A DNA stretch of 64,000 bases from Escherichia phage vB_Eco_mar004NP2. Under the pieces are notes generated by a model that had not been told where the DNA came from, ran no database searches, and saw only the letters and a program-made list of their open reading frames with translations. Every line of letters begins with the position of its first letter. Position 1 is the first letter of the stretch. The DNA lies in the sequence record OR896837.1; one strand, given 5' to 3'. Positions 3,454-64,000 of this stretch are shown here, piece after piece. A program made the position numbers and the translations under genes.

Positions 3454-6243
3454 GTGTTTTCAATCCTACAAGGTCATGCAGGATTTCATCGCGATTTAGC
3501 CACAGGCAATTGGCGAGAAGTTAAAGCAGAAGATTATCTTTTTGCTAAAAGATTTTCCTCAAAGCATCCTGAAGGTAAACCAGCTTCAATGCCCTTCAAG
3601 TTTGATGTAATTGACGAAGTTGATCCTCAAACCCTAGTAGAAATGCTTCCTCTTATGAGACGTTTAACGTCTGACCCTCATATCGTTGCGGTACGAGGTC
3701 GATGTCTTGCACCTAAAAATAATGTGCGGCGTAAGAATGGCAACTTTAATGTATCTAACCCAAGTCATATAATTGCAATGGATGTGGATGGTATTGTAGA
3801 TACAGGTGGTTGTAACAAGTTTGATCTTGTTGGCATGGCTCGACATATTATTAGAATGTTAAATAGTATTAGTGAGGATATGTTTCCTCTTGATGCAGGG
3901 TTTATCGCTCATGCATCGTCTTCGGCTGGGCTAAAACCAGGTATCCGAATGCACTTAATACTAGAATCTAATGTTAAAGTAACTCAGGGTCAAATCAAAT
4001 TCTTATTTACATCTATCAACGAAAGTAGTAGACAAAAGTATGGCTTTGATATTGCCGACTTAGCTTATTACTCTTCCGTACAGCTCCATTATTTTGCAGA
4101 TCCGTTATTTACCGATGGTATAGTAGATCCGTTTAAAGAGGAGGGTGCTTCACGTCTGGTATTTGTTAAGGGTTCTAAAGTAAATTTACCCAATAATCTG
4201 GTTGACTATGAAACAACTAGAGGTGAGTTTAAAGAAGAGTTCTACTCTTTACTAGACCAAATTAAGGGTAAAAAAGCTGCCTCTGATAAAGTAGAAGAAA
4301 CCATCAGCGAACTAGAAGAAGCTGAGGATGGAGTGTATCTACGTATTATTCCTAAACTCTATCACAGGGCTTTAGAGGATGGTGTTGATTTTGCATGGCT
4401 AGAAAAAGAAATCCGTCCAGCCTTATCAGAATATATTGCAACTAAAGATAATAGTCGTAATATTCAAGACTACTTTAATAATGGTCGTAAACAGGCTCTA
4501 AAAGCATTTGTTAATAATTCTAAACGTTATATACCGGATGTTTTAAAAGGTATTCCACTCAAAAAGCTAGAAACTAACTCTTTAGAGACTGATAACTTCT
4601 TGAAATTAAATACTGTGCCACCAGAAGGTTATATGACTTTTGTAAAAGCGAGTCTAGGTACAGGTAAAACTACAGCGGTTGTGCGTTGGTTAGATTCAGG
4701 AGTTATTAAAGGTAATTTCTTAGCAATTACCAATACTCGAGCACTGGTATCTTCCAATGCTAAGAAATTTAGTGCAGGACAATATGATAAGTCTGTAGAT
4801 ATGCTTAATTTTAAGCGTGGTGCTATTGACCGTATGTCCACAACTATTCACTCTTTGCATAAGTTCAAGAGTTTTATTGGTCAAATTGATGCAATCTTTA
4901 TCGATGAATGTGATGCAGTAATGAACGACCTATTATTCGCCCCGGTTGTTAAACAACGTCGTGAATGTATTCAGGTTCTTCGGGATATTCTTGCAACTGC
5001 AAAAATCATTATATTATCAGATGGTGATATTAGTGCAGAAACAATTGAAGCATATGGTTCTTTGATCGAGTTTGATAAACCGGTTGCATTTTATAATCAT
5101 CACCGTAAAATGCTGTCAAAAGCTCATGCTTATGAGTTTCCTGATGAATCCAGTATTTGGGTTGCACTTCAGACTTCTCTAGAGATGGGTGAGAAATCTA
5201 TTCTGGTATCTGATTGTGGCCCTGATGAGCTGAATGAGAAGGGTATGGCATTACGTCGTAATACGGGTGCGTTAGTTAAGGAAATCCACTCAAATTCTAC
5301 GTCTGATGTGGATATTAGACGTATTCTGGATTACACAACTAATGAGCTGATTGATCAACAAATTGATTGCTTATTATGTAGTCCATCCGTAACGAGTGGA
5401 GTTGACTTCAACTATTTTGATAACGTATTCGTTATTACTAGAACCAGTAACCAAGCGCCAAACATGCGTTTTCAAGCAATCAGGCGCGACCGTGGTGCTC
5501 AGAATATCTATTATTTTATTGATAAATCTACGAGTGGATTCTCTGCAGGTTCTGAACAATATAATATTGATGAGGGCTGGCTGGAGTTAGCACAGCAATT
5601 ATATGCACGTCGTAGAGAGCTGGAATCTAGAAATTATACTAGTACTTTACGTTATTACTTGCTTGATCAGGGTGCAACTATTGATATTTTCAGCGAAAGC
5701 TGGGGAACTATTGAAGGTGCAGGGAAAGAATATATGGAAGAGCGAATCAAAGCTATTCTACATTCAACTCCTGATTATTGTGCTCCACGTCATGCGGATG
5801 CGTATGAAGCTAAACTACTTCTTGTTCGCTATTATCATCTTGAGTCTATTAAAGATGTAACAGTTGAGCATGTTGAACAATATATCAAGGATAAACCTAA
5901 TGATCGAGCGGCATTCTTCCATAAAATGCACGAGATGTTTTGGGAAGATATTAAGAAGTGTTCAAACGTCACTATCAAACCATTCATAGAAGCTCTGAAA
6001 GGTAAGAAGAAGGACTTCTTCCTTAAAACAGGTCAGAGTGCTAACCCAAAATATGCTAGAATGTATCTTGGTATGATGGGTATTGGTAAGGATATGAACA
6101 CTGAAAATATTGTAGACTGGTACAGAACCTATTGTAAAATCGAGTGTATGCCAATTCCTTATAAGTTTATGACTGATGAGGAGAAACATATGCATGATGA
6201 AGCAATGGCAGAGCTAGGTGCTAGAAATGACAGTGAAGAATAA
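3454..6243 (+). CDS. replication helicase, UL9/origin-binding-protein-like SF2 helicase with a possible primase-like N-terminal domain
   Basis: Walker A ASLGTGKTT and Walker B IFIDECDAV in the translation; N-terminal AMDVDG acidic motif. Start placed at GTG 3454 with AGGAG 7 nt upstream (track start 3376 is TTG). Confidence 0.6.
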   Translation: MFSILQGHAGFHRDLATGNWREVKAEDYLFAKRFSSKHPEGKPASMPFKFDVIDEVDPQTLVEMLPLMRRLTSDPHIVAVRGRCLAPKNNVRRKNGNFNVSNPSHIIAMDVDGIVDTGGCNKFDLVGMARHIIRMLNSISEDMFPLDAGFIAHASSSAGLKPGIRMHLILESNVKVTQGQIKFLFTSINESSRQKYGFDIADLAYYSSVQLHYFADPLFTDGIVDPFKEEGASRLVFVKGSKVNLPNNLVDYETTRGEFKEEFYSLLDQIKGKKAASDKVEETISELEEAEDGVYLRIIPKLYHRALEDGVDFAWLEKEIRPALSEYIATKDNSRNIQDYFNNGRKQALKAFVNNSKRYIPDVLKGIPLKKLETNSLETDNFLKLNTVPPEGYMTFVKASLGTGKTTAVVRWLDSGVIKGNFLAITNTRALVSSNAKKFSAGQYDKSVDMLNFKRGAIDRMSTTIHSLHKFKSFIGQIDAIFIDECDAVMNDLLFAPVVKQRRECIQVLRDILATAKIIILSDGDISAETIEAYGSLIEFDKPVAFYNHHRKMLSKAHAYEFPDESSIWVALQTSLEMGEKSILVSDCGPDELNEKGMALRRNTGALVKEIHSNSTSDVDIRRILDYTTNELIDQQIDCLLCSPSVTSGVDFNYFDNVFVITRTSNQAPNMRFQAIRRDRGAQNIYYFIDKSTSGFSAGSEQYNIDEGWLELAQQLYARRRELESRNYTSTLRYYLLDQGATIDIFSESWGTIEGAGKEYMEERIKAILHSTPDYCAPRHADAYEAKLLLVRYYHLESIKDVTVEHVEQYIKDKPNDRAAFFHKMHEMFWEDIKKCSNVTIKPFIEALKGKKKDFFLKTGQSANPKYARMYLGMMGIGKDMNTENIVDWYRTYCKIECMPIPYKFMTDEEKHMHDEAMAELGARNDSEE

Positions 6244-6460: not shown

Positions 6461-6468
6461 AAATTTAT

Positions 6469-6497
6469 TTGCATAGTGCAAAAAATTTCTGTATAAT
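6469..6497 (+). promoter_or_regulatory. sigma70-like early promoter
   Basis: TTGCAT-17 nt-TATAAT, followed by AT-rich CATAAATTTGAGAGAGGAG leader ending in the RBS. Confidence 0.55.
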
Positions 6498-6528
6498 AGA
6501 TTCATAAATTTGAGAGAGGAGTTTAAAT

Positions 6529-8726: not shown

Positions 8727-8755
8727 TTGCTTTCAACTCAGTTTTGTTATATAAT
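8727..8755 (+). promoter_or_regulatory. sigma70-like early promoter
   Basis: TTGCTT-17 nt-TATAAT followed by TATAAATTAATGAGAG leader. Confidence 0.55.
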
Positions 8756-8786: not shown

Positions 8787-9758
8787 ATGACTAATGTAAA
8801 AGACTTTATTAAACGTTGCCAAGAAGCATATTACCAGGGAATGTCTTTAATCTCTGACGAAGAATATGATCGTCTGATTAAAAGATTTCCGTTAGAAGAA
8901 GAGATCGGGCCTAAGGGCGATATTCCACATCTGTATCGTATGTATTCTTTACAGAAAGTTTATTATAATCGTGGAGATAAACCTCCGTTTAACCCATTAG
9001 GTCAGGTAGAAACTGATAAGTTAGATGGTTGTGCGATTTCTCTGTTATATATTAATGGCGAATTTGTTCAAGCATTAACTCGTGGTAATGGCATTCTAGG
9101 GAATGATGTCACAAGCAACGTAAGATTGCTGAACATCCCTAAAAAGATTTCCCAAAAAGTACCTACTCAAATCACTGGTGAAGTTCTAATTACAAAAGAA
9201 GTAGAAAATAAACGTAACTTTGCCTCTGGTGCTATTAACCTCAAGGATAGAGATGATTTCGTACAACGTATCGGGGAAGGTGGTTTAATCTTCGTTGCAT
9301 ATGGTATCCAGTGTTCTGCTGAATCTGTAGGTATTACAGAAGCGTATTTAAAAGATATGCTTTGGCTGGAGAATGAGAACTTCTTAACAGTTGTTAATGT
9401 GCGTTCCTTCTTTAAATGGATTCCGACGGACGGTAAAGTTGTTCGTATCAATGACAATAACAAATTCTTCCGAGAAGGCTGGACTAATAAATTCCCTCGT
9501 GGAGCATTCGCTATTAAAGAGGATGAAGAAGGCGAAATTACAACTCTTACTAAAGTTGAATGGCAGGTAGGGGCTTCTGGTAAAGTAACTCCAGTTGGTT
9601 ATTTTGAACCGGTAATTATTGATGATGCTACAATTGTTAAAGCGACTCTTAATAACGTTGATTATATTAACTCTCTCGATCTAGAGATCGGTTGCCAGAT
9701 TCGAGTGATTCGTGCTGGTGGTGTAATCCCGTGTATAGTAGAGCGAGTATACGATTAA
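8787..9758 (+). CDS. NAD-dependent DNA ligase, N-terminal (adenylation/OB) subunit
   Basis: LigA-type adenylation motif ETDKLDGCAIS (KxDG lysine), RGNG and EGxV motifs; 323 aa; ends before the Zn-finger/HhH/BRCT part. Confidence 0.8.
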   Translation: MTNVKDFIKRCQEAYYQGMSLISDEEYDRLIKRFPLEEEIGPKGDIPHLYRMYSLQKVYYNRGDKPPFNPLGQVETDKLDGCAISLLYINGEFVQALTRGNGILGNDVTSNVRLLNIPKKISQKVPTQITGEVLITKEVENKRNFASGAINLKDRDDFVQRIGEGGLIFVAYGIQCSAESVGITEAYLKDMLWLENENFLTVVNVRSFFKWIPTDGKVVRINDNNKFFREGWTNKFPRGAFAIKEDEEGEITTLTKVEWQVGASGKVTPVGYFEPVIIDDATIVKATLNNVDYINSLDLEIGCQIRVIRAGGVIPCIVERVYD

Positions 9759-9901
9759 TACATAACCCTTTGCTACCCATCTACCATATCGGAATTATAA
9801 AGTGGTTATTGACATTTTCGCCGCTTAGGTATATACTATTATCATTCAGTTGAGGGATAGAAAGTTATGGCGAGGGTAAGCAAAGTTAGTTAAAATTGTA
9901 G

Positions 9902-9930
9902 TTGCTAAATGCTTAAATACTTGCTATAAT
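9902..9930 (+). promoter_or_regulatory. sigma70-like early promoter inside the ligase split
   Basis: TTGCTA-17 nt-TATAAT; a second candidate TTGACA-17-TATACT lies at 9813-9841. Confidence 0.5.
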
Positions 9931-9960
9931 ATTTATATAAATTGATAAGGAAGAAATTTG

Positions 9961-10740
9961 ATGAAAATCGAAATTCCAACACAATGTCCCTCTTGTGGTT
10001 CTAAGCTAGATCTTGTCAACGGACAATTATTCTGTCGGAATAAGTCCAACTGTCCAGCGCAATCAAGTAAGTTAATTGAGAACTTCTGTTCAAAAATGAA
10101 GTTAAAGGGCTTTGGCCCAAAAACTATTGAGAAGCTGGAGCTGACGAAGATTTCAGAACTATTTTACCTAACCGAAGAAGATTTGGTTAGAGCCGTGGGT
10201 AGCAAGGTTGCCGCTAAGTTAATTAGCGAATTAAATACTAAAGTTCGCGGAGACATTGACTTTGGTTCAGTTCTCGGTTCTTTAGGAATCCCTCTAATTG
10301 GAGAGGTTGCAGCAAAGAAATTATCCCAAAATTACACTAGCTTCCATGATGTGAAGGCTGACGGCAAGGCTGGAGAAAATTACAAAGCCTGGCTAAATTC
10401 CCCACAAGGCAAGGATGTTATCGAACTACCGTGGAAATTTTCAACTGGTATTAAGGGCACTAAAGCTGACGTCATCATTACAGATGAATTAGTTGCCCAG
10501 CCAAATGGAATCGCGGTATGTATTACCGGATCTTTGCAAGATTTTGCAAATCGAACGGATGCAACAAACTATTTAGAAGGTCTAGGGTATACGGTTAAGA
10601 AATCCGTTACTAAAGACGTCAAATACCTAATCTGTGAGGATGAATCAAAACGTTCTTCCTCATCTTATAAGAAAGCCGAAACGAATGGGATAGAAATCCT
10701 GTCGATTAAAGAACTATTGGAGAAAAATAATAATGTCTAA
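9961..10740 (+). CDS. NAD-dependent DNA ligase, C-terminal (Zn-finger/HhH/BRCT) subunit
   Basis: CPSCGSKL...FCRNKSNCPAQ four-Cys zinc finger, glycine-rich HhH-like segment (GFGPKT, GIPLIGE), BRCT-like C-terminus; ATG 9961 (track start 9958 is TTG). Confidence 0.75.
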   Translation: MKIEIPTQCPSCGSKLDLVNGQLFCRNKSNCPAQSSKLIENFCSKMKLKGFGPKTIEKLELTKISELFYLTEEDLVRAVGSKVAAKLISELNTKVRGDIDFGSVLGSLGIPLIGEVAAKKLSQNYTSFHDVKADGKAGENYKAWLNSPQGKDVIELPWKFSTGIKGTKADVIITDELVAQPNGIAVCITGSLQDFANRTDATNYLEGLGYTVKKSVTKDVKYLICEDESKRSSSSYKKAETNGIEILSIKELLEKNNNV

Positions 10741-53519: not shown

Positions 53520-53641
53520 TACGCGTGGGTGTGTCCAGTGGCCCCCCAGATGAGAATGAGTCTCATTACCGCCCGGTACTTAGCAGGCTAATAGTCACGG
53601 CATGGTATCATTACACACCGTGACTATTTCAACTTTAATTG

Positions 53642-57972: not shown

Positions 57973-58202
57973 AGTATAAACTCCAAGTTATTTAGGGGAT
58001 TGTTCCGCATTACCTGCTAGAAAGTAGCAGGTAATAAGCAACAATCCGCTCACCGCTATAATCAATTTAAGGAACTCCACGCAGGCTGCTATATCCCAGT
58101 TAGGGGGCAGGATGATTTATGGGGAATCACCTAACCGTCAAATTGTATCAAGTTATCGCTCTCATCGAACTGGGTACATCTTAAAGCCTATCGGCTAGGG
58201 TG

Positions 58203-58406
58203 TCAAACTGTTTTTTGCAGTTTTTTATGATTTTCTTTCAGGTCGATCATAATATTACGCCAGATCATTTCTAAACCCTGCTGGCGGCCTTTCTTGTACT
58301 GAGCAAATCGGTATTTTACGGATTGCTGGGCTATTGTCAACAATTTTTTAGTAGTACCATCTAATTTTTTAGCTGGTTTACCAGTGATCAATAAAGTTTG
58401 TTTCAT
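58203..58406 (-). CDS. hypothetical small basic protein
   Basis: 67 aa, Lys-rich. Confidence 0.35.
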   Translation of the reverse strand: MKQTLLITGKPAKKLDGTTKKLLTIAQQSVKYRFAQYKKGRQQGLEMIWRNIMIDLKENHKKLQKTV

Positions 58407-58863
58407 ATCTGCGATTCCTTATAATATAAGTTTACCGCCGATAGACTTTAAGATGTACCCAATTTTTAAAGAGCGCGGCGGTAAACTTCCCGCCGTGTAG
58501 TTCGTCATTGCCGCCCTACGAGATAAATAATAGCAAATAGTAAAAATGGCGCAACCTTATTTTTGTAAAGAAACGTAAAGACAAAATGCCACCGGACACC
58601 GTGCGGCGACCTGGGCGCGGCGCACTAAAATTAAAGGAAACGGGCGCGCGAATACCATAAAACCCAGCAGGTTGGCAAGTAATTTTTTCATTTATATTTG
58701 CCTTGCCCTACTTGACAAAAACTAAAAAGCTCGTGGTAGCGATAAACGAGGGTAGGCAATGCAATGGCATGGCTAAAAACTTCATCGCGTTATAGGGCGT
58801 TTTAGGCGCATTCTAGCCTTGTTGATAACTTATCCCCAAAAGCAAAAATGAAATTTTCCTAGT

Positions 58864-58895
58864 TATCCACTTGACTTTTATTTTCCAGTGGATAA
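58864..58895. promoter_or_regulatory. inverted pair of DnaA-box-like sites
   Basis: TTATCCACT (58864-58872) and AGTGGATAA (58887-58895) form a palindrome around TTGACTTTTATTTTCC. Confidence 0.4.
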
Positions 58896-59156
58896 CTACT
58901 TATTTTATGAAATAAATTAATTGACTTTTATTTGTTAGTATGCATCGGAAAGATAGCAGACTAATAGTTGCTAGGATGATAATCATGCTGGTGGATTGTA
59001 ATAGCCGGAACTGTTAGCAGACTATTAATCACGGAAAATCTCATTAGCCAACTAACTATTTCATGATATATAATATACTTATAAATTAATGAGAAATAAT
59101 AATTATAAGAAATCGTAACCGATAGAAATAATAACTATAAGAAACTATCGTCCTAA

Positions 59157-59286
59157 GTGAGAACCACTATCGTTTAAGTTATCCACAAGTTTATTAACAG
59201 CACAAAATGATTTGACACGATAGGCGACGATATAAGGACTTATCCACAGACTTATCCACATGTTATCCTACTGTATAAATATACAG
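59157..59286. repeat. left inverted repeat with three DnaA boxes
   Basis: TTATCCACA at 59179, 59240 and 59252; ends in palindrome CTGTATAAATATACAG; about 80% reverse-complement match to 62758-62884. Confidence 0.7.
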
Positions 59287-59552
59287 GGTAAAAAGGTAGT
59301 GTTAACAACTGCAATCAATTTTAGGCGGCCTAAAACGCTTTCTAACGAGCTAAATGCGGTGGGGTAATATTAAAGTGAAGCCTTCACCCGTCGCCCTGGT
59401 GGCTTCACCGTGTTTTGCTCTTTACTGTACCGCTGCGCGGTTAGCATAAAACTAGGCGCTAGGCAAGGAAAATAAAAAGGTAAAATAATATTTGCCTATG
59501 CTAGAAAATTGCCTTTATCATTCACTCACCGATTAACGAGGGAGGCCAACAA

Positions 59553-60314
59553 ATGAGGCTATATAAACCAGGTAACGCAACCGTCTTAAAAGGTGCGCTG
59601 CGTAACCTGCTGGACGGTAGCAGAACAACCAGCATTAAACATTTTATTAACAAGGCTGAAACTATTCACCAAAACTTTTTTGGTGATTTCGATGCCTATG
59701 ATATGAATAGTTTTCTACCGTTATATAAACAAGGGGCAACGCTTGTTTTATATAATCAAGATTATCAATTGCTCACTAGTCGAGGGCCGGATACTGATTT
59801 CATAATCGTAAAAGGTAGCACAGTAAAAGCCTATGATACTGGGGCAGGCTTAGAAGTTTTTTCAATAGAAAATTATGAAGCCAACCCCAATGATCTTTAT
59901 GATATTGAAAATTTTCTTGATTCATTTTGGCGTTATTTATCAGTTGGCTGGAATCGGTCGGATTGTGACGGGTATCGTTTCGCGGCTGTAATGGCCTTTG
60001 ATGATAACGGTAATTTTTTGTTACCGTCGGAAGTGTACCCTTATGTATATGAGGGGGATATTGAAAGCGCGGGCTTTTCTTTCTGGAAGGAGGAAGATCA
60101 GCCTATTGACAACACGGAAAAACATGCTGTAAATTCTAACACTCAAAGCGTTAACACTCAAACTACTGAAAACAAAGGAAATAATACCATGACCAAGATC
60201 GCTAATATCGTTGCCGCTAATAAATCCGCTGTTGTAAATGCTGCAAAACTGGAAGCTGGCAAAATTGCATTGACTCAAATCACGAAAGTAGCGGCTAAAA
60301 ACCGCCGTTTATGA
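59553..60314 (+). CDS. hypothetical pre-early protein
   Basis: 253 aa; RBS GAGGGAGG. Confidence 0.5.
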   Translation: MRLYKPGNATVLKGALRNLLDGSRTTSIKHFINKAETIHQNFFGDFDAYDMNSFLPLYKQGATLVLYNQDYQLLTSRGPDTDFIIVKGSTVKAYDTGAGLEVFSIENYEANPNDLYDIENFLDSFWRYLSVGWNRSDCDGYRFAAVMAFDDNGNFLLPSEVYPYVYEGDIESAGFSFWKEEDQPIDNTEKHAVNSNTQSVNTQTTENKGNNTMTKIANIVAANKSAVVNAAKLEAGKIALTQITKVAAKNRRL

Positions 60315-60544
60315 TTAAAGGTTATATTGATACGCCGATTGGTCGGGTAGTTATTGCTAACCTGCTGAGCGTAGCGGTTGACCAGTACGCCCCGAATAAC
60401 CAGAAAGCGAAAGCGGTAGCAGGCGCAGCTATGGAAGCGGCAATGCTAGAAATGGTGCAAAGTTTTAACATCGCTGAAATGATTGATGAAATGGTGAAAG
60501 GTATCGATATTTCTACTTTTACCACTAGCACCGAAAGCGAGTAA
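60311..60544 (+). CDS. hypothetical protein
   Basis: 77 aa; ATGA coupling. Confidence 0.45.
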   Translation: MIKGYIDTPIGRVVIANLLSVAVDQYAPNNQKAKAVAGAAMEAAMLEMVQSFNIAEMIDEMVKGIDISTFTTSTESE

Positions 60545-60609
60545 TAATATTTAGTGGGGATTGTTTCCCCGCTTTACTATTCCCTTATTAATTAATAGGA
60601 GGCTAATAA

Positions 60610-61104
60610 ATGGCTGAGGAAAAATATGGGTTTTCGCTAGGGGAAGTGAGCAAGGCTAAACATGATATGATCATTTTGGTCGATTGTCATACTGGCTATT
60701 GCGGTGAAGGGAATACTGAGGAATATTTTGTTCCTGCTGGTACGGATCTCGACGCTTTCGCTCATGAAATGGCTGTTGATAATGCTTCTCGTTTTGGTAG
60801 CGATGGCTATGAAGATGAGGAAACGGGCGAATGGTATGAGAATGATAATGTATATGCAAGCCTTTATCATTATCAATTAAGTAAATCCGGCACATATGTA
60901 AACGGCGGCGATCCTATTAATTCCGTCATGAAATTAATTATTAAATATGGTGGCGCTGAAATAATCGGAAATAAAGCGGTAATATACGCAAACCGACTAA
61001 AACAGCTTGTTTATATCCCTGATAGTACCCGATGGGATGAATACGCTGTTTTGCATGACGAATTGAAACGATGTTTCAATATTGAAACATTACAAGTAGT
61101 TTAA
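60610..61104 (+). CDS. hypothetical protein
   Basis: 164 aa; RBS AGGAGG. Confidence 0.5.
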   Translation: MAEEKYGFSLGEVSKAKHDMIILVDCHTGYCGEGNTEEYFVPAGTDLDAFAHEMAVDNASRFGSDGYEDEETGEWYENDNVYASLYHYQLSKSGTYVNGGDPINSVMKLIIKYGGAEIIGNKAVIYANRLKQLVYIPDSTRWDEYAVLHDELKRCFNIETLQVV

Positions 61105-61210
61105 TGTAAAGTTTTGTAAAGGTCGCCATAATTGGTGGCCTTTTTTGTTATAATGCCTTTACACCGTTTAAGGACGGTTGAAAATTTTCCCAAAAATTTG
61201 GAGGCTTAAA

Positions 61211-61441
61211 ATGGTTGCTTATTCTTCTGCTAGTCATCTGTTTACCGCGCAAGGCTGGGTATCTAATCATGCTGTCATCTATGAAATGGTGCAGGAGTTC
61301 GGTATTGTTAAAACCTATAATACCATTCAGGAACTATATAACGCCGATAAAATCGATCAGCAAACGGCTGGCTTTTTGCTGGATACCCTGAAGGCGGAAC
61401 ATTGCACCAAAAAACAAGCTGCAAAAATTGTTTTAATGTAA
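61211..61441 (+). CDS. hypothetical protein
   Basis: 76 aa from ATG 61211 with GGAGG RBS (track start 61178 is TTG). Confidence 0.4.
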   Translation: MVAYSSASHLFTAQGWVSNHAVIYEMVQEFGIVKTYNTIQELYNADKIDQQTAGFLLDTLKAEHCTKKQAAKIVLM

Positions 61442-61491
61442 TTAATAACGGGGGATATAATATCCCCCGATAACTAGGAGGATATCACAAA

Positions 61492-61641
61492 TGGTTATTT
61501 TTCGAGCTATTCTAGCAGGTATCTTGGGCGCTATTTTATCACTTTTTGCAATAGCTTTCGGCGTTCACGCGGTTATTATTGGTGCGGGTATCGCTGTATT
61601 TTCTTATCTGCTGGGCTGCATGACTAGTAAAGGAGAATAAA
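61492..61641 (+). CDS. small membrane protein (49 aa)
   Basis: Hand-translated MVIFRAILAGILGAILSLFAIAFGVHAVIIGAGIAVFSYLLGCMTSKGE; RBS AGGAGG. Confidence 0.35.
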
Positions 61642-61642
61642 A

Positions 61643-61855
61643 ATGATTCGTAACGTTTCCCTTGCACGTTCAAAAGGCTTTAAGCTGGTGGACGTTAACA
61701 CGTTCGAGCGGGAAGATTGTAAAATTGAATATGTAGCGCGAAATAAAAACGTCTTCCGTGTTACCGAGAAAAAATTCGATAAACGGGGCAACGTGATAGC
61801 TGAAACAGTTAAACATTTTGCCACCTTTTACGCTGCGTTTCGGGGAGTGCTATAA
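61643..61855 (+). CDS. hypothetical protein
   Basis: 70 aa; RBS AAAGGAGA. Confidence 0.4.
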   Translation: MIRNVSLARSKGFKLVDVNTFEREDCKIEYVARNKNVFRVTEKKFDKRGNVIAETVKHFATFYAAFRGVL

Positions 61856-61856
61856 A

Positions 61857-62201
61857 ATGGTAATTTATGAAGGCAATCGTTTTGTTGCTAATTGCCGTCC
61901 GGCATTACTAGCAAACTACTTAAATCAGCTTTCCCCAGCTTATAAGGGCGTTATTAATATTTATGAAGGCAAGGCGCATTATAAAATCAATGCGGTCGTT
62001 GCCCGTGAACTAGCGTTTCAATTTTTGACCTTTGCATCTTGCGACGTTCAGGTCATGGGTGAGGCGTTAATTGCAGAAAATGAAGATGATTTTATTAATA
62101 TTTTTCGCAAGATATGCACCGAGCGCCTGATAATGAAAGGCGCGTATATTCAATCCACTGCGGATAGTATTGAAACAGCGTTTCGAAAGGTGGCGCAATG
62201 A
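61857..62201 (+). CDS. hypothetical protein
   Basis: ATG 61857 directly after the previous stop (track start 61818 is further upstream). Confidence 0.4.
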   Translation: MVIYEGNRFVANCRPALLANYLNQLSPAYKGVINIYEGKAHYKINAVVARELAFQFLTFASCDVQVMGEALIAENEDDFINIFRKICTERLIMKGAYIQSTADSIETAFRKVAQ

Positions 62202-62301
62202 GATTATATATTTTCGCGGGTAATGTTGAGGCTGCAAATGATTCCGCTGGTGGCGATAACGTTCGCCACTATTGGCAAAAATATATTTACTAGGGGTTAT
62301 T

Positions 62302-62496
62302 ATGAACAATAAAATTGTTGTAACCAAAATCAGTACAATGGTTGATGTTTTTTACGTGCCCGATACGCCGGAGAATCGGCAAGCGGTCGAGCGTGGCGAA
62401 TATGATAGCGTTATTTATGATGCCGATGGTTATTATCAGCATTTGGTGGATTCCTACGGGGAGGAGGAAAAGATCACGCATCGACTACCAGACTAA
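62302..62496 (+). CDS. hypothetical protein
   Basis: 64 aa from ATG 62302 (MNNKIVV...). Confidence 0.3.
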   Translation: MNNKIVVTKISTMVDVFYVPDTPENRQAVERGEYDSVIYDADGYYQHLVDSYGEEEKITHRLPD

Positions 62497-62757
62497 TAAT
62501 AACGGGGCGCAACTACCAGGGAGTGCCCCCAATTCTCAAATGAGAGTGATTCTCATTTAACCGCGCCCGCGATGGTTAGCCTGCTAATGATTAAGGTGTT
62601 ACATGTCGCCTTGTGTGATCGTTAGCAAGCTAACTAATTTTTAAGCCTCCTCCAATTTTGCCCTTGTTTTAGTATCCCCATCAAAATTAAACGCGTTAGA
62701 ATGCGATTCAGGACGTTTTAGGCCTATATTAGAATTATTCACTACATAGGAATATTG

Positions 62758-62884
62758 TATATTTATACAGTAGGATAAGCTGTGGATAAGTCTGTTAATA
62801 ACGCCTCAAAATGGCTAGGATTCTGTCAAATCAAATCGTGCTGTTAATAAGTCTGTGGATAACTTAAATAACAGTGTTTCTCAC
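62758..62884. repeat. right inverted repeat with DnaA boxes
   Basis: TGTGGATAA at 62781 and 62854; reverse complement aligns with 59157-59286. Confidence 0.7.
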
Positions 62885-63060
62885 TTCCATTCTTAAATGA
62901 GAATCATTATCATTCGCATTCCACTGTCTAACCGATAATCATTTCCTTTCTTAAATGAGAATCATTTCACTTTTTGAATAGTTCTCATTTCACTTCTTAA
63001 ATGAGAATCATTATCATTCGCATTCCACTTCTTAAATGATAATGATTCTCATTCAAAGTC
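62885..63060. repeat. array of TCTTAAATGAGAATCATT-type repeats
   Basis: At least four direct or inverted copies of AAATGAGAATCATT / AATGATTCTCATT; related palindromes at 53547-53568 and 62537-62560. Confidence 0.7.
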
Positions 63061-63078
63061 GCAGGGCAATTGCCCTGC
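63061..63078. repeat. perfect 18-bp palindrome
   Basis: GCAGGGCAATTGCCCTGC. Confidence 0.9.
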
Positions 63079-63084
63079 GCTTTT

Positions 63085-63685
63085 GTGCAAATCCGACATA
63101 TGCCACCATGGATTACGCGCGGGCGTGTATGTGCGAATCCGACAATTTTTGGTAGTGTGCAAATCCGACCCCAAAAATTTTTATAGTGTGCAAATCCGAC
63201 AATGAATTTTCCCAAAAACTCCAGCAATCACGAACTGCGTTCGAATCCTGTGGGATATGTGCAAATCCGACACGGTTTTTCTAGGATTAAGATGTGCGAA
63301 TCCGACAAGATTTTTGTGACTTCGATTGGAGGGTGTGTGATTGTATAGGTTTGAGGAGAAGATGAGAGAGCGAGAGAAAATAAGGGGAGAAACTGGAGGA
63401 GCAGCATGGGTGGCGTGCAACGCCTGATTTGCTGCGTTTTTGGGAAGAGTTGAGAAGATTTGGGTTAATTTGAGATTAGTGGAGATAAAGTAAAATTTTA
63501 TTTGCTAAAGGTGGCAAAATAGCTTGACAAGTGAAAATTTTTTGTGACCCTAAAAACTCAGGCAATCATGGGCCTTCGGCCCGAAATAATGCTGCCATTT
63601 TCAGGAGATTATGTATTCATGAAAACTTAGGCGTTTGTGCAAATCCGACCATAAATTTCTAGAAACACAATGTGCAAATCCGACA
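63085..63685. repeat. dispersed array of GTGC(A/G)AATCCGAC(A/C) 14-mers
   Basis: Eight copies, at 63085, 63131, 63157, 63188, 63259, 63294, 63637 and 63672, all in the same orientation, irregular spacing, no ORF. Confidence 0.85.
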
Positions 63686-64000
63686 GTAATTTCTGGAAAT
63701 GTGTTTTCAAAAAATGTCTCCTAGAAATAACCGCCCTCCCTATAACCGCCCTGTATTAAACCGGCCTAGGATATGTAACGTTGGAGAGAAACTGCCCTAG
63801 AGTGTAAGAGTTTTCCTAGAAACTTAGGAGTCTAGAAGAAAGTGTTGTGCCATCCTAGCAGATGAGCGGCAACAGGTGTATCATCTTGAATGTAAATTAT
63901 ATGGTCAAAAAGTTTTACTTTTATTTTAAATATAAGATCCCCCAGGGTTCTCATATAGAGCTTTGCCCCCGCCAGAAGGTCTCGTGATGTTTCTAGTAAT

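Follow-up and report, generated by a model that had tools for sequence, protein, structure and literature searches.

The 1,146-bp interval at positions 58407-59552 of Escherichia phage vB_Eco_mar004NP2 is the central untranslated repeat region of a T5-like phage, located in the terminal repeat, which forms the first-step-transfer DNA (positions refer to the window, i.e., the whole 64-kb stretch of DNA analysed). Its ortholog in T5 is made up of Repeat Regions 1 and 2 (RR1 and RR2), a feature already known from GenBank AY587007 and Davison 2020 (bioRxiv 10.1101/866236). Its most widely conserved part is a 131-bp module carrying DnaA boxes, for which we propose an accessory role in the entry or transcription of phage DNA. 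Taken together, the identity of the region, the promoters assigned around and within it, and this role of the DnaA-box module form an explanation to which we give a probability of about 0.85. The initial annotation of these 1.1 kb, as a divergent control region with repeats, DnaA boxes and promoter-like elements, was confirmed as an observation, and its interpretation was supported in part.

Identity and genomic context of the interval

The phage is T5-like (Demerecviridae). The interval shares 99.9% identity with Salmonella phage SPLA5b and ~92% with positions 4404-5898 of the BF23 left terminal repeat (LTR), and it matches ~450-540 phage records, nearly all of them from T5-like phages (Demerecviridae). 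The left terminal repeats of BF23 and T5 align collinearly with the region (window position 53623 corresponds to position 104 in both), and the interval lies ~4.9-6.0 kb from the left end, inside the terminal repeat. The neighbours on its left, homologs of dmp, A1, A2, T5.007 and T5.008, are all oriented leftward. The nearest is hdi/ORF009, where the 67-aa hdi product differs from T5.008 at 2 of 67 residues, and on the right the interval is flanked by gene 011, which is read rightward from an ATG at 59553. The interval parts a leftward hdi-A2-A1-dmp unit from a rightward gene-011 unit; annotated neighbours and collinearity with the T5 and BF23 LTRs agree with its earlier description as lying between divergent pre-early units.

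In T5, RR1 and RR2 are split by an insert carrying the homing endonuclease gene hegG, and T5 positions 5420-6018 stand in place of window positions 58926-59013. RR1 and RR2 are contiguous in vB_Eco_mar004NP2 because this insert is missing. According to Davison 2020, the two T5 regions formed a single region before the HNH insertion, with RR1 comprising IRA, IRA' and IRB, and RR2 comprising IRC-spacer-IRD (131 bp) and IRB'. In AY587007, the inverted repeats annotated at the homologous T5 positions follow the same order: A, A', B, C, D, B'. The interval and T5 RR1/RR2 thus have in common their position, their flanking genes, the order of the named repeats, a 131-bp module with an inverted partner in the injection stop signal (iss), and pairs of boxes spaced by 3 bp. 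They differ in that vB_Eco_mar004NP2 has AT-rich 16-nt repeats, a palindrome at 58860-58898 and a pair of boxes at 58820-58838, none of which is present in T5 (Table 1).

Open reading frames within the interval are limited to short frames of 30-44 aa, consistent with the initial annotation, which had found no convincing ORF in these 1.1 kb. The 44-aa frame at 58557-58691 (- strand) is a weak gene candidate. Only its first ~19 codons (a hydrophobic N-terminus) are conserved, its length and frame shift among relatives, and T5 has AGG in place of the ATG. An Rfam scan of the whole 64-kb window found no RNA family. We also rejected the interval as the injection stop signal itself. The iss is located at the boundary of the first-step-transfer DNA (~8% of the genome), and the interval lies away from this boundary; the T5 iss, at 9140-10149, corresponds to window positions ~62490-63500.

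Table 1. Features in and around the repeat region of vB_Eco_mar004NP2 (window coordinates).
Feature	Position	Strand	Description
PD/E20 candidate	58206->58178	-	TTGACA-17-TAAGAT; hdi 3' end, at the T5-annotated PD/E20 position
hdi (T5.008 homolog, host division inhibitor)	58203-58406	-	67 aa; left border of the interval
PH22	58340->58313	-	TTGACA-16-TAAAAT; inside hdi, left of the interval
13-bp-stem inverted repeat	58428-58488		Also within a 29-aa ORF009-like frame
Candidate leftward ORF009/hdi promoter	58527-58554	-	TTGCGC (58554->58549), 16-nt spacer, TATTAT (58532->58527)
IRB	58781-58807	+	Partner IRB' at 59328-59354; 27 nt, 78%; annotated in T5 AY587007
Back-to-back variant DnaA boxes	58820-58838		TTATCAACA (-), TTATCCCCA (+); in the window, BF23 and saus47N
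DnaA-box palindrome	58860-58898		Two TTATCCACT boxes around TTGACTTTTATTTTCC
N25-class promoter-like site	59045-59087	+	TAGCCA, 18-nt spacer, TATAAT, 6 nt, ATAAATT
AT-rich tandem repeat	59092-59144	+	16-nt unit, 3.3 copies; 18% GC trough
IRC-spacer-IRD module	59155-59285	+	131 bp; main feature of the interval; T5 IRC/IRD in AY587007
GC-rich hairpin and T-rich tract	59375-59425	+	Terminator-like, weak; between the N25-class site and P11
P11-position promoter	59492-59521	+	TTGCCT-18-TATCAT; directly upstream of gene 011
Inverted partner IRD'-spacer-IRC'	62756-62886	-	iss region, right end of the terminal repeat

DnaA boxes and the conserved 131-bp module

DnaA boxes are strongly enriched in the interval and are conserved across the family. 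Allowing at most one mismatch, the interval holds seven boxes; its dinucleotide shuffles give 0.25 (never more than 3 in 1000 shuffles), and the remainder of the window has 0.38 per 1146 bp (Poisson P ~2e-7). The perfect box, TTATCCACA, occurs five times in 64 kb, and all five copies lie within 59179-62862. A high density of host-factor-like sites had been suggested initially; this stands for DnaA (7 versus 0.25-0.38) but not for IHF, as a search of the interval for the IHF consensus WATCAANNNNTTR found no site. Moreover, the density is not unusual for a lytic phage, as had been proposed, but is instead a conserved trait of the T5-like family.

Three perfect boxes (59179, 59240 and 59252) are located in the IRC-spacer-IRD module, where boxes are arranged in pairs with a 3-bp spacing. 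One pair reads TTATCCACA-AGT-TTATTAACA (59179-59199, with boxes starting at 59179 and 59191), and the other reads TTATCCACA-GAC-TTATCCACA (59240-59260, starting at 59240 and 59252). They are followed by TTATCCTAC and then by the palindrome CTGTATAAATATACAG. A repeat search paired the module with its partner at 62756-62886 over 131 nt (79% complementary, 3470 nt apart). Equivalent features are described for T5 by Davison 2020, where the injection stop region contains IRC-spacer-IRD in inverted form, as IRD'-spacer-IRC', and where DnaA and DnaA* boxes are paired 3 bp apart. The same study notes that DnaA sites were reported for the T5 iss in 1987 and extends them to the present region. The interval and the T5 iss (Repeat Region 3) accordingly share the 131-bp DnaA-box module, in inverted form. 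They differ in that the iss is at the boundary between first- and second-step-transfer DNA, whereas the interval is 3.5 kb further left and its T5 equivalent is dispensable. The boxes at 59179, 59240 and 59252 were absent from the initial annotation, as were the 131-bp inverted repeat, IRB/IRB' and the AT-rich 16-nt tandem repeat.

Within the interval, BLAST matches to IRC-spacer-IRD reach furthest and include phages of Serratia and Vibrio. Two oppositely oriented box clusters, 2.8-4.4 kb apart and beside the A1/A2 genes, occur in each of Serratia phage Kamaji, Klebsiella phage AmPh_EK80 and Vibrio phage PG07. An alignment of 11 phages showed that most of the variation in the boxes falls at position 5, the N of the consensus: here box 1 has all four bases, with a single further change elsewhere, whereas box 3 is changed at positions 3 and 5 only, and box 4 at positions 5 and 6. 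The consensus quoted by Davison 2020, TTWTNCACA, is degenerate at positions 3 and 5. For this small sample (11 phages), the variation appears to fit what selection for DnaA binding would predict. Judging from sequence, the boxes of the interval are best accounted for as genuine DnaA sites.

Promoters around and within the interval

Three pre-early promoters have been characterised in T5, one of them upstream of gene 011; PH22 and PD/E20 are strong and leftward, and serve A2/A1/dmp. Primer extension identified P11 and PH22 as pre-early in T5 (Klimuk et al., PMC7472727). The T5 annotation of P11 (6411-6489) occupies the same aligned position as the promoter directly upstream of gene 011 in the window. 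The initial annotation had proposed that the interval is the pre-early promoter hub, and this is upheld for rightward transcription, with the P11 position and an N25-class site inside the interval, but not for leftward transcription. Because PH22 and PD/E20 lie to its left, the interval is not the hub for the leftward operon.

The N25-class site corresponds closely to a promoter-like element that had been placed at 59066-59090 and consists of an exact TATAAT (59069-59074) and an exact ATAAATT (59081-59087). The predicted start is the A at 59081, which would give a leader of ~470 nt to gene 011. The window has six exact copies of TATAAT-N6-ATAAATT, each on the + strand, versus 0.71 expected (~8-fold enriched). 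One of the six is the N25 homolog at 6461-6527, with an initial transcribed sequence, ATAAATTTGAGAGAGGAGTT, that matches that of N25. A search of the T5 LTR for the N25 promoter found none, and the window homolog likewise lies outside the repeat. The site at 59069 is near-invariant across Tequintavirus and Epseptimavirus, and is unannotated in three T5 records and in BF23. It has the same TATAAT-N6-ATAAATT core as the strong sigma-70 promoters of the T5 N25 type, and its initial transcribed sequence resembles theirs (AATGAGA, as at window positions 8750 and 6492). Nonetheless, it differs from them in having no SD-ATG within 15 nt and a long (~470-nt) leader, and it is promoter-like by sequence. 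Its -35 element is also poor (TAGCCA at 18 nt), compared with TTGCWW at 17 nt in the other five sites.

A transcript from the N25-class site is predicted to cross the AT-rich repeat, then the DnaA-box module, and then the terminator-like hairpin at 59375-59425. The copy number of the AT-rich 16-nt repeat differs between phages. The hairpin is predicted to fold at -14.3 kcal/mol, with a z of only -1.5, and is conserved in Tequintavirus but not in Epseptimavirus relatives. A literature search for transcription start-site datasets covering T5 pre-early DNA found none.

A further candidate promoter (TTGCGC-16-TATTAT) probably drives ORF009/hdi leftward. In the 11 phages, both of its hexamers and an upstream A/T-rich block are near-invariant and the spacer varies; it scores below the threshold of the consensus promoter scan and is not annotated anywhere. 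Other -35-like hexamers (TTGACT/TTGACA) at 58871, 58921, 58712 and in the IRC-IRD spacer were discarded, as they have no usable -10 at 16-19 nt.

Proposed function of the DnaA-box module and alternative explanations

We propose that rightward transcription probably also starts at the N25-class site (~59081) and runs through the AT-rich repeats and the DnaA-box module, the paired boxes of which would be bound by host DnaA. The two inverted modules lie on either side of the gene 011-017 operon and would most likely assemble into an accessory complex of DnaA and DNA. Such a complex may help to hold or pause the incoming DNA, as proposed by Davison 2020, or may modulate transcription through the module. 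In the former proposal, DnaA at the membrane would bind the two modules and stop DNA from entering; Davison 2020 also draws attention to an unexplained minor first-step band of ~5.8 kb, observed by Rhoades, which falls near IRC. We infer both DnaA binding and its consequence here. The DnaA-box modules are the leading candidate for host involvement in the two-step DNA injection of T5, which has been without a mechanism for decades.

A published T5 deletion mutant bears on how much the phage depends on the module. The mutant, lacking hegG-017, is viable and forms small plaques. Its junction primers map to NC_005859 positions 5393 and 9161 (window ~58900-62505), and the deletion removes the equivalents of the N25-class site, IRC-IRD, P11 and genes 011-017. 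The function of the module is hence not essential in the laboratory, since T5 without the present copy is viable with small plaques. The mutant phage keeps the iss copy of the module, and its viability indicates that the DnaA module is either accessory or redundant with that retained copy.

A possible, though less favoured, alternative is that the module is a transcriptional device, in which DnaA bound 100-180 nt downstream of the N25-class start would block or attenuate, or else stimulate, the rightward leader, and so tune genes 011-017 to the DnaA status of the host. In E. coli, DnaA boxes within the transcribed parts of genes act as a roadblock, and DnaA stimulates lambda pR. The boxes in the interval share one orientation and lie directly downstream of the conserved promoter-like site, and beyond them come a weak terminator-like hairpin and P11, a second promoter; such a layout would be expected for an upstream transcript that is usually stopped. 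Tolerance of module loss would also fit a tuning role. However, the inverted iss copy has no TATAAT-N6-ATAAATT site facing it, and the module is kept in Serratia phage Kamaji, where no exact TATAAT-N6-ATAAATT was found. It is unlikely that the inverted repeats and palindromes are instead sites for the pre-early protein A2, or for an A1/A2 complex, that shut off pre-early transcription, with the likeness to DnaA boxes being incidental. A1 dampens pre-early promoters, A2 binds DNA, and IRA/IRA' places copies of the PD/E20 candidate's -10/start region on either side of hdi, all of which would suit such a role. Nonetheless, no A2 site is known, substitutions in the boxes track the degeneracy of the DnaA consensus, and perfect 9-mers are kept in phages of Escherichia, Salmonella, Serratia, Klebsiella and Vibrio. 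Because the 9-mers and the DnaA-type degeneracy are kept across these hosts, a conserved host protein is a more likely ligand than fast-evolving phage proteins.

Resemblance to oriC, remarked on by Davison 2020, raises the question of whether the AT-rich repeats and DnaA boxes give the terminal repeat an origin, or an unwinding element, that depends on DnaA. A repeat block of 18% GC and a cluster of four to five DnaA boxes in the same orientation are indeed separated by 35 nt. As in bacterial DnaA-box clusters (oriC, datA and DARS), several high-affinity TTATCCACA boxes occur within ~100 bp beside AT-rich DNA. Unlike those clusters, the interval belongs to the first-injected DNA of a virulent phage. 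It has no GATC site in 1146 bp (versus 2.9 per kb in the window), and searches of the interval for the 13-mer DUE consensus and the IHF consensus found none. Moreover, T5 lacks the AT-rich repeats, their copy number is variable among phages, and T5 remains viable when the region is deleted. Davison 2020 also cites T5 origins near the genome centre and the absence of replication genes during first-step transfer. We therefore regard an origin as very improbable. Only slightly less doubtful is a more elaborate version of our own proposal, in which a pre-early non-coding leader of ~330 nt would run from the N25-class site through the AT-rich repeats and the DnaA module to end at 59375-59425, its transcription timing second-step transfer. 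If this were true, the passage of RNA polymerase would compete with DnaA occupancy, and pre-early transcription and A1 shut-off would be coupled to the assembly or release of a DnaA-DNA complex that bridges the present module and the inverted copy at the injection-stop site.

The module of vB_Eco_mar004NP2 is a canonical T5-type module and not a new kind of element. Our analysis makes small additions to what was known, namely box variation shaped like the DnaA consensus, the two-module layout in Serratia, Klebsiella and Vibrio relatives, and a conserved, unannotated N25-class promoter-like site facing the module.

Lineage-specific DnaA boxes and other inverted repeats

The DnaA-box palindrome reported in the initial annotation was recovered, with TTATCCACT at 58863-58871 (+) and 58887-58895 (-), each one mismatch from TTATCCACA. 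Its arms (58860-58874 and 58884-58898) are 93% complementary (fold z -6.8). The left box is present in 8 of the 11 phages, and the right box in only three (the window, BF23 and saus47N); T5, SelmaRatti and DT57C have neither. The back-to-back boxes at 58820-58838, present in the window, BF23 and saus47N, are also absent from T5, SelmaRatti and DT57C, and are degenerate in the rest of the 11 phages. Their absence from these three phages means that neither the palindrome nor the 58820-58838 boxes can serve the family as a whole.

The 13-bp inverted repeat noted previously, AAGTTTACCGCCG (58428-58440) and CGGCGGTAAACTT (58476-58488), is exact. Its predicted fold is -24.6 kcal/mol (z -3.9) on the - strand and -25.8 kcal/mol (z -5.3) on the + strand, and 0 of 200 shuffles folded equally well. 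The 35-nt loop of this stem coincides almost fully with IRA' (58437-58475), which repeats, in inverted form, the PD/E20 candidate's -10/start region (IRA, 58157-58195). The repeat search identified IRA and IRA' as a 39-nt pair (82%) placed either side of hdi. The inner core of the 13-bp-stem repeat, GCCGATAGRCTTTAAGATGTWCCC, is nearly invariant in the 11 phages, and the outer stem is broken in Epseptimavirus relatives. The IRB/IRB' pair, in turn, brackets the promoter, repeat and DnaA-box core of the interval.

DnaA-box clusters and the injection-stop-like region

In the distant Demerecviridae compared, two DnaA-box clusters lie in opposite orientations with one pre-early operon between them. 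With the clusters of Vibrio phage PG07 and Serratia phage Kamaji, the two-cluster arrangement reaches past the phages compared in the literature consulted. A repeat search of the window gave the contents of the injection-stop-like region, which are listed with the other features in the table.

Coordinates of features in the window and in related phages
Feature	Genome	Position	Strand	Detail
Small frame	Window	58557-58691	-	First ~19 codons hydrophobic, MKKLLAxxxxxxxFARxF
Stem substitution C->T	T5/BF23	58476 (window numbering)
Stem substitution A->G	DT57C	58434 (window numbering)
DnaA-box clusters	Vibrio phage PG07	2160-2223; 4972-5118
DnaA-box clusters	Serratia phage Kamaji	5086-5106; 9483-9564
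N25-class site, N25 homolog	Window	6461-6527	+
N25-class sites	Window	8750; 9925; 18908; 52278	+
Injection-stop-like region	Window	62490-63700		Contents from repeat search
Inverted 131-bp DnaA module	Window	62756-62886		Inside injection-stop-like region
TTAAATGAGAATCATT-type repeats	Window	62524-63056		n = 4-5, inside injection-stop-like region
GTGCAAATCCGAC	Window	63079-63693		n = 7 copies, inside injection-stop-like region

Promoters, repeats and composition

Elsewhere in the window, N25-class promoter sites (TTGCWW-17-TATAAT-N6-ATAAATT) occur five times, always on the + strand, and four of these five further sites are followed by a Shine-Dalgarno-ATG pair at most ~13 nt downstream. GATC (Dam) sites are absent from the 1,146-bp interval 58407-59552 (0 sites), compared with 2.9 per kb across the whole window. 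The interval also carries two TAGCAGACTAWTA direct repeats separated by 61 nt (58954-59027), between which sits the highly conserved block GCTAGGATGATAATCAYGCTGGTGGATTGTAAC; in T5, the hegG homing-endonuclease cassette takes the place of most of this block.

Among Tequintavirus relatives, the 13-bp stem of the inverted repeat shows two substitutions (58434 and 58476). Taken as RNA of the + strand, the stem retains G-U pairing with either change, but on the - strand they produce A-C mismatches. With just two events, this is no more than a hint.

Coding potential within and beside the spacer

The ~19 N-terminal codons of the small leftward frame are kept in nine phages, with changes that exchange one hydrophobic residue for another, and the remainder varies in frame and length between phages (19-72 aa). 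T5 has AGG, not ATG, at the start codon. This frame may represent a short membrane peptide gene.

On the rightward side, the homolog of gene 011, which is dispensable and toxic in T5, is made up of two ORFs of 253 aa and 77 aa (59553-60544). The break results from a 1-nt deletion within an A-run at ~60296, relative to BF23 and PMBT29, in both of which the homolog is one 330-aa ORF; sequencing error, slippage and a genuine frameshift are all possible causes.
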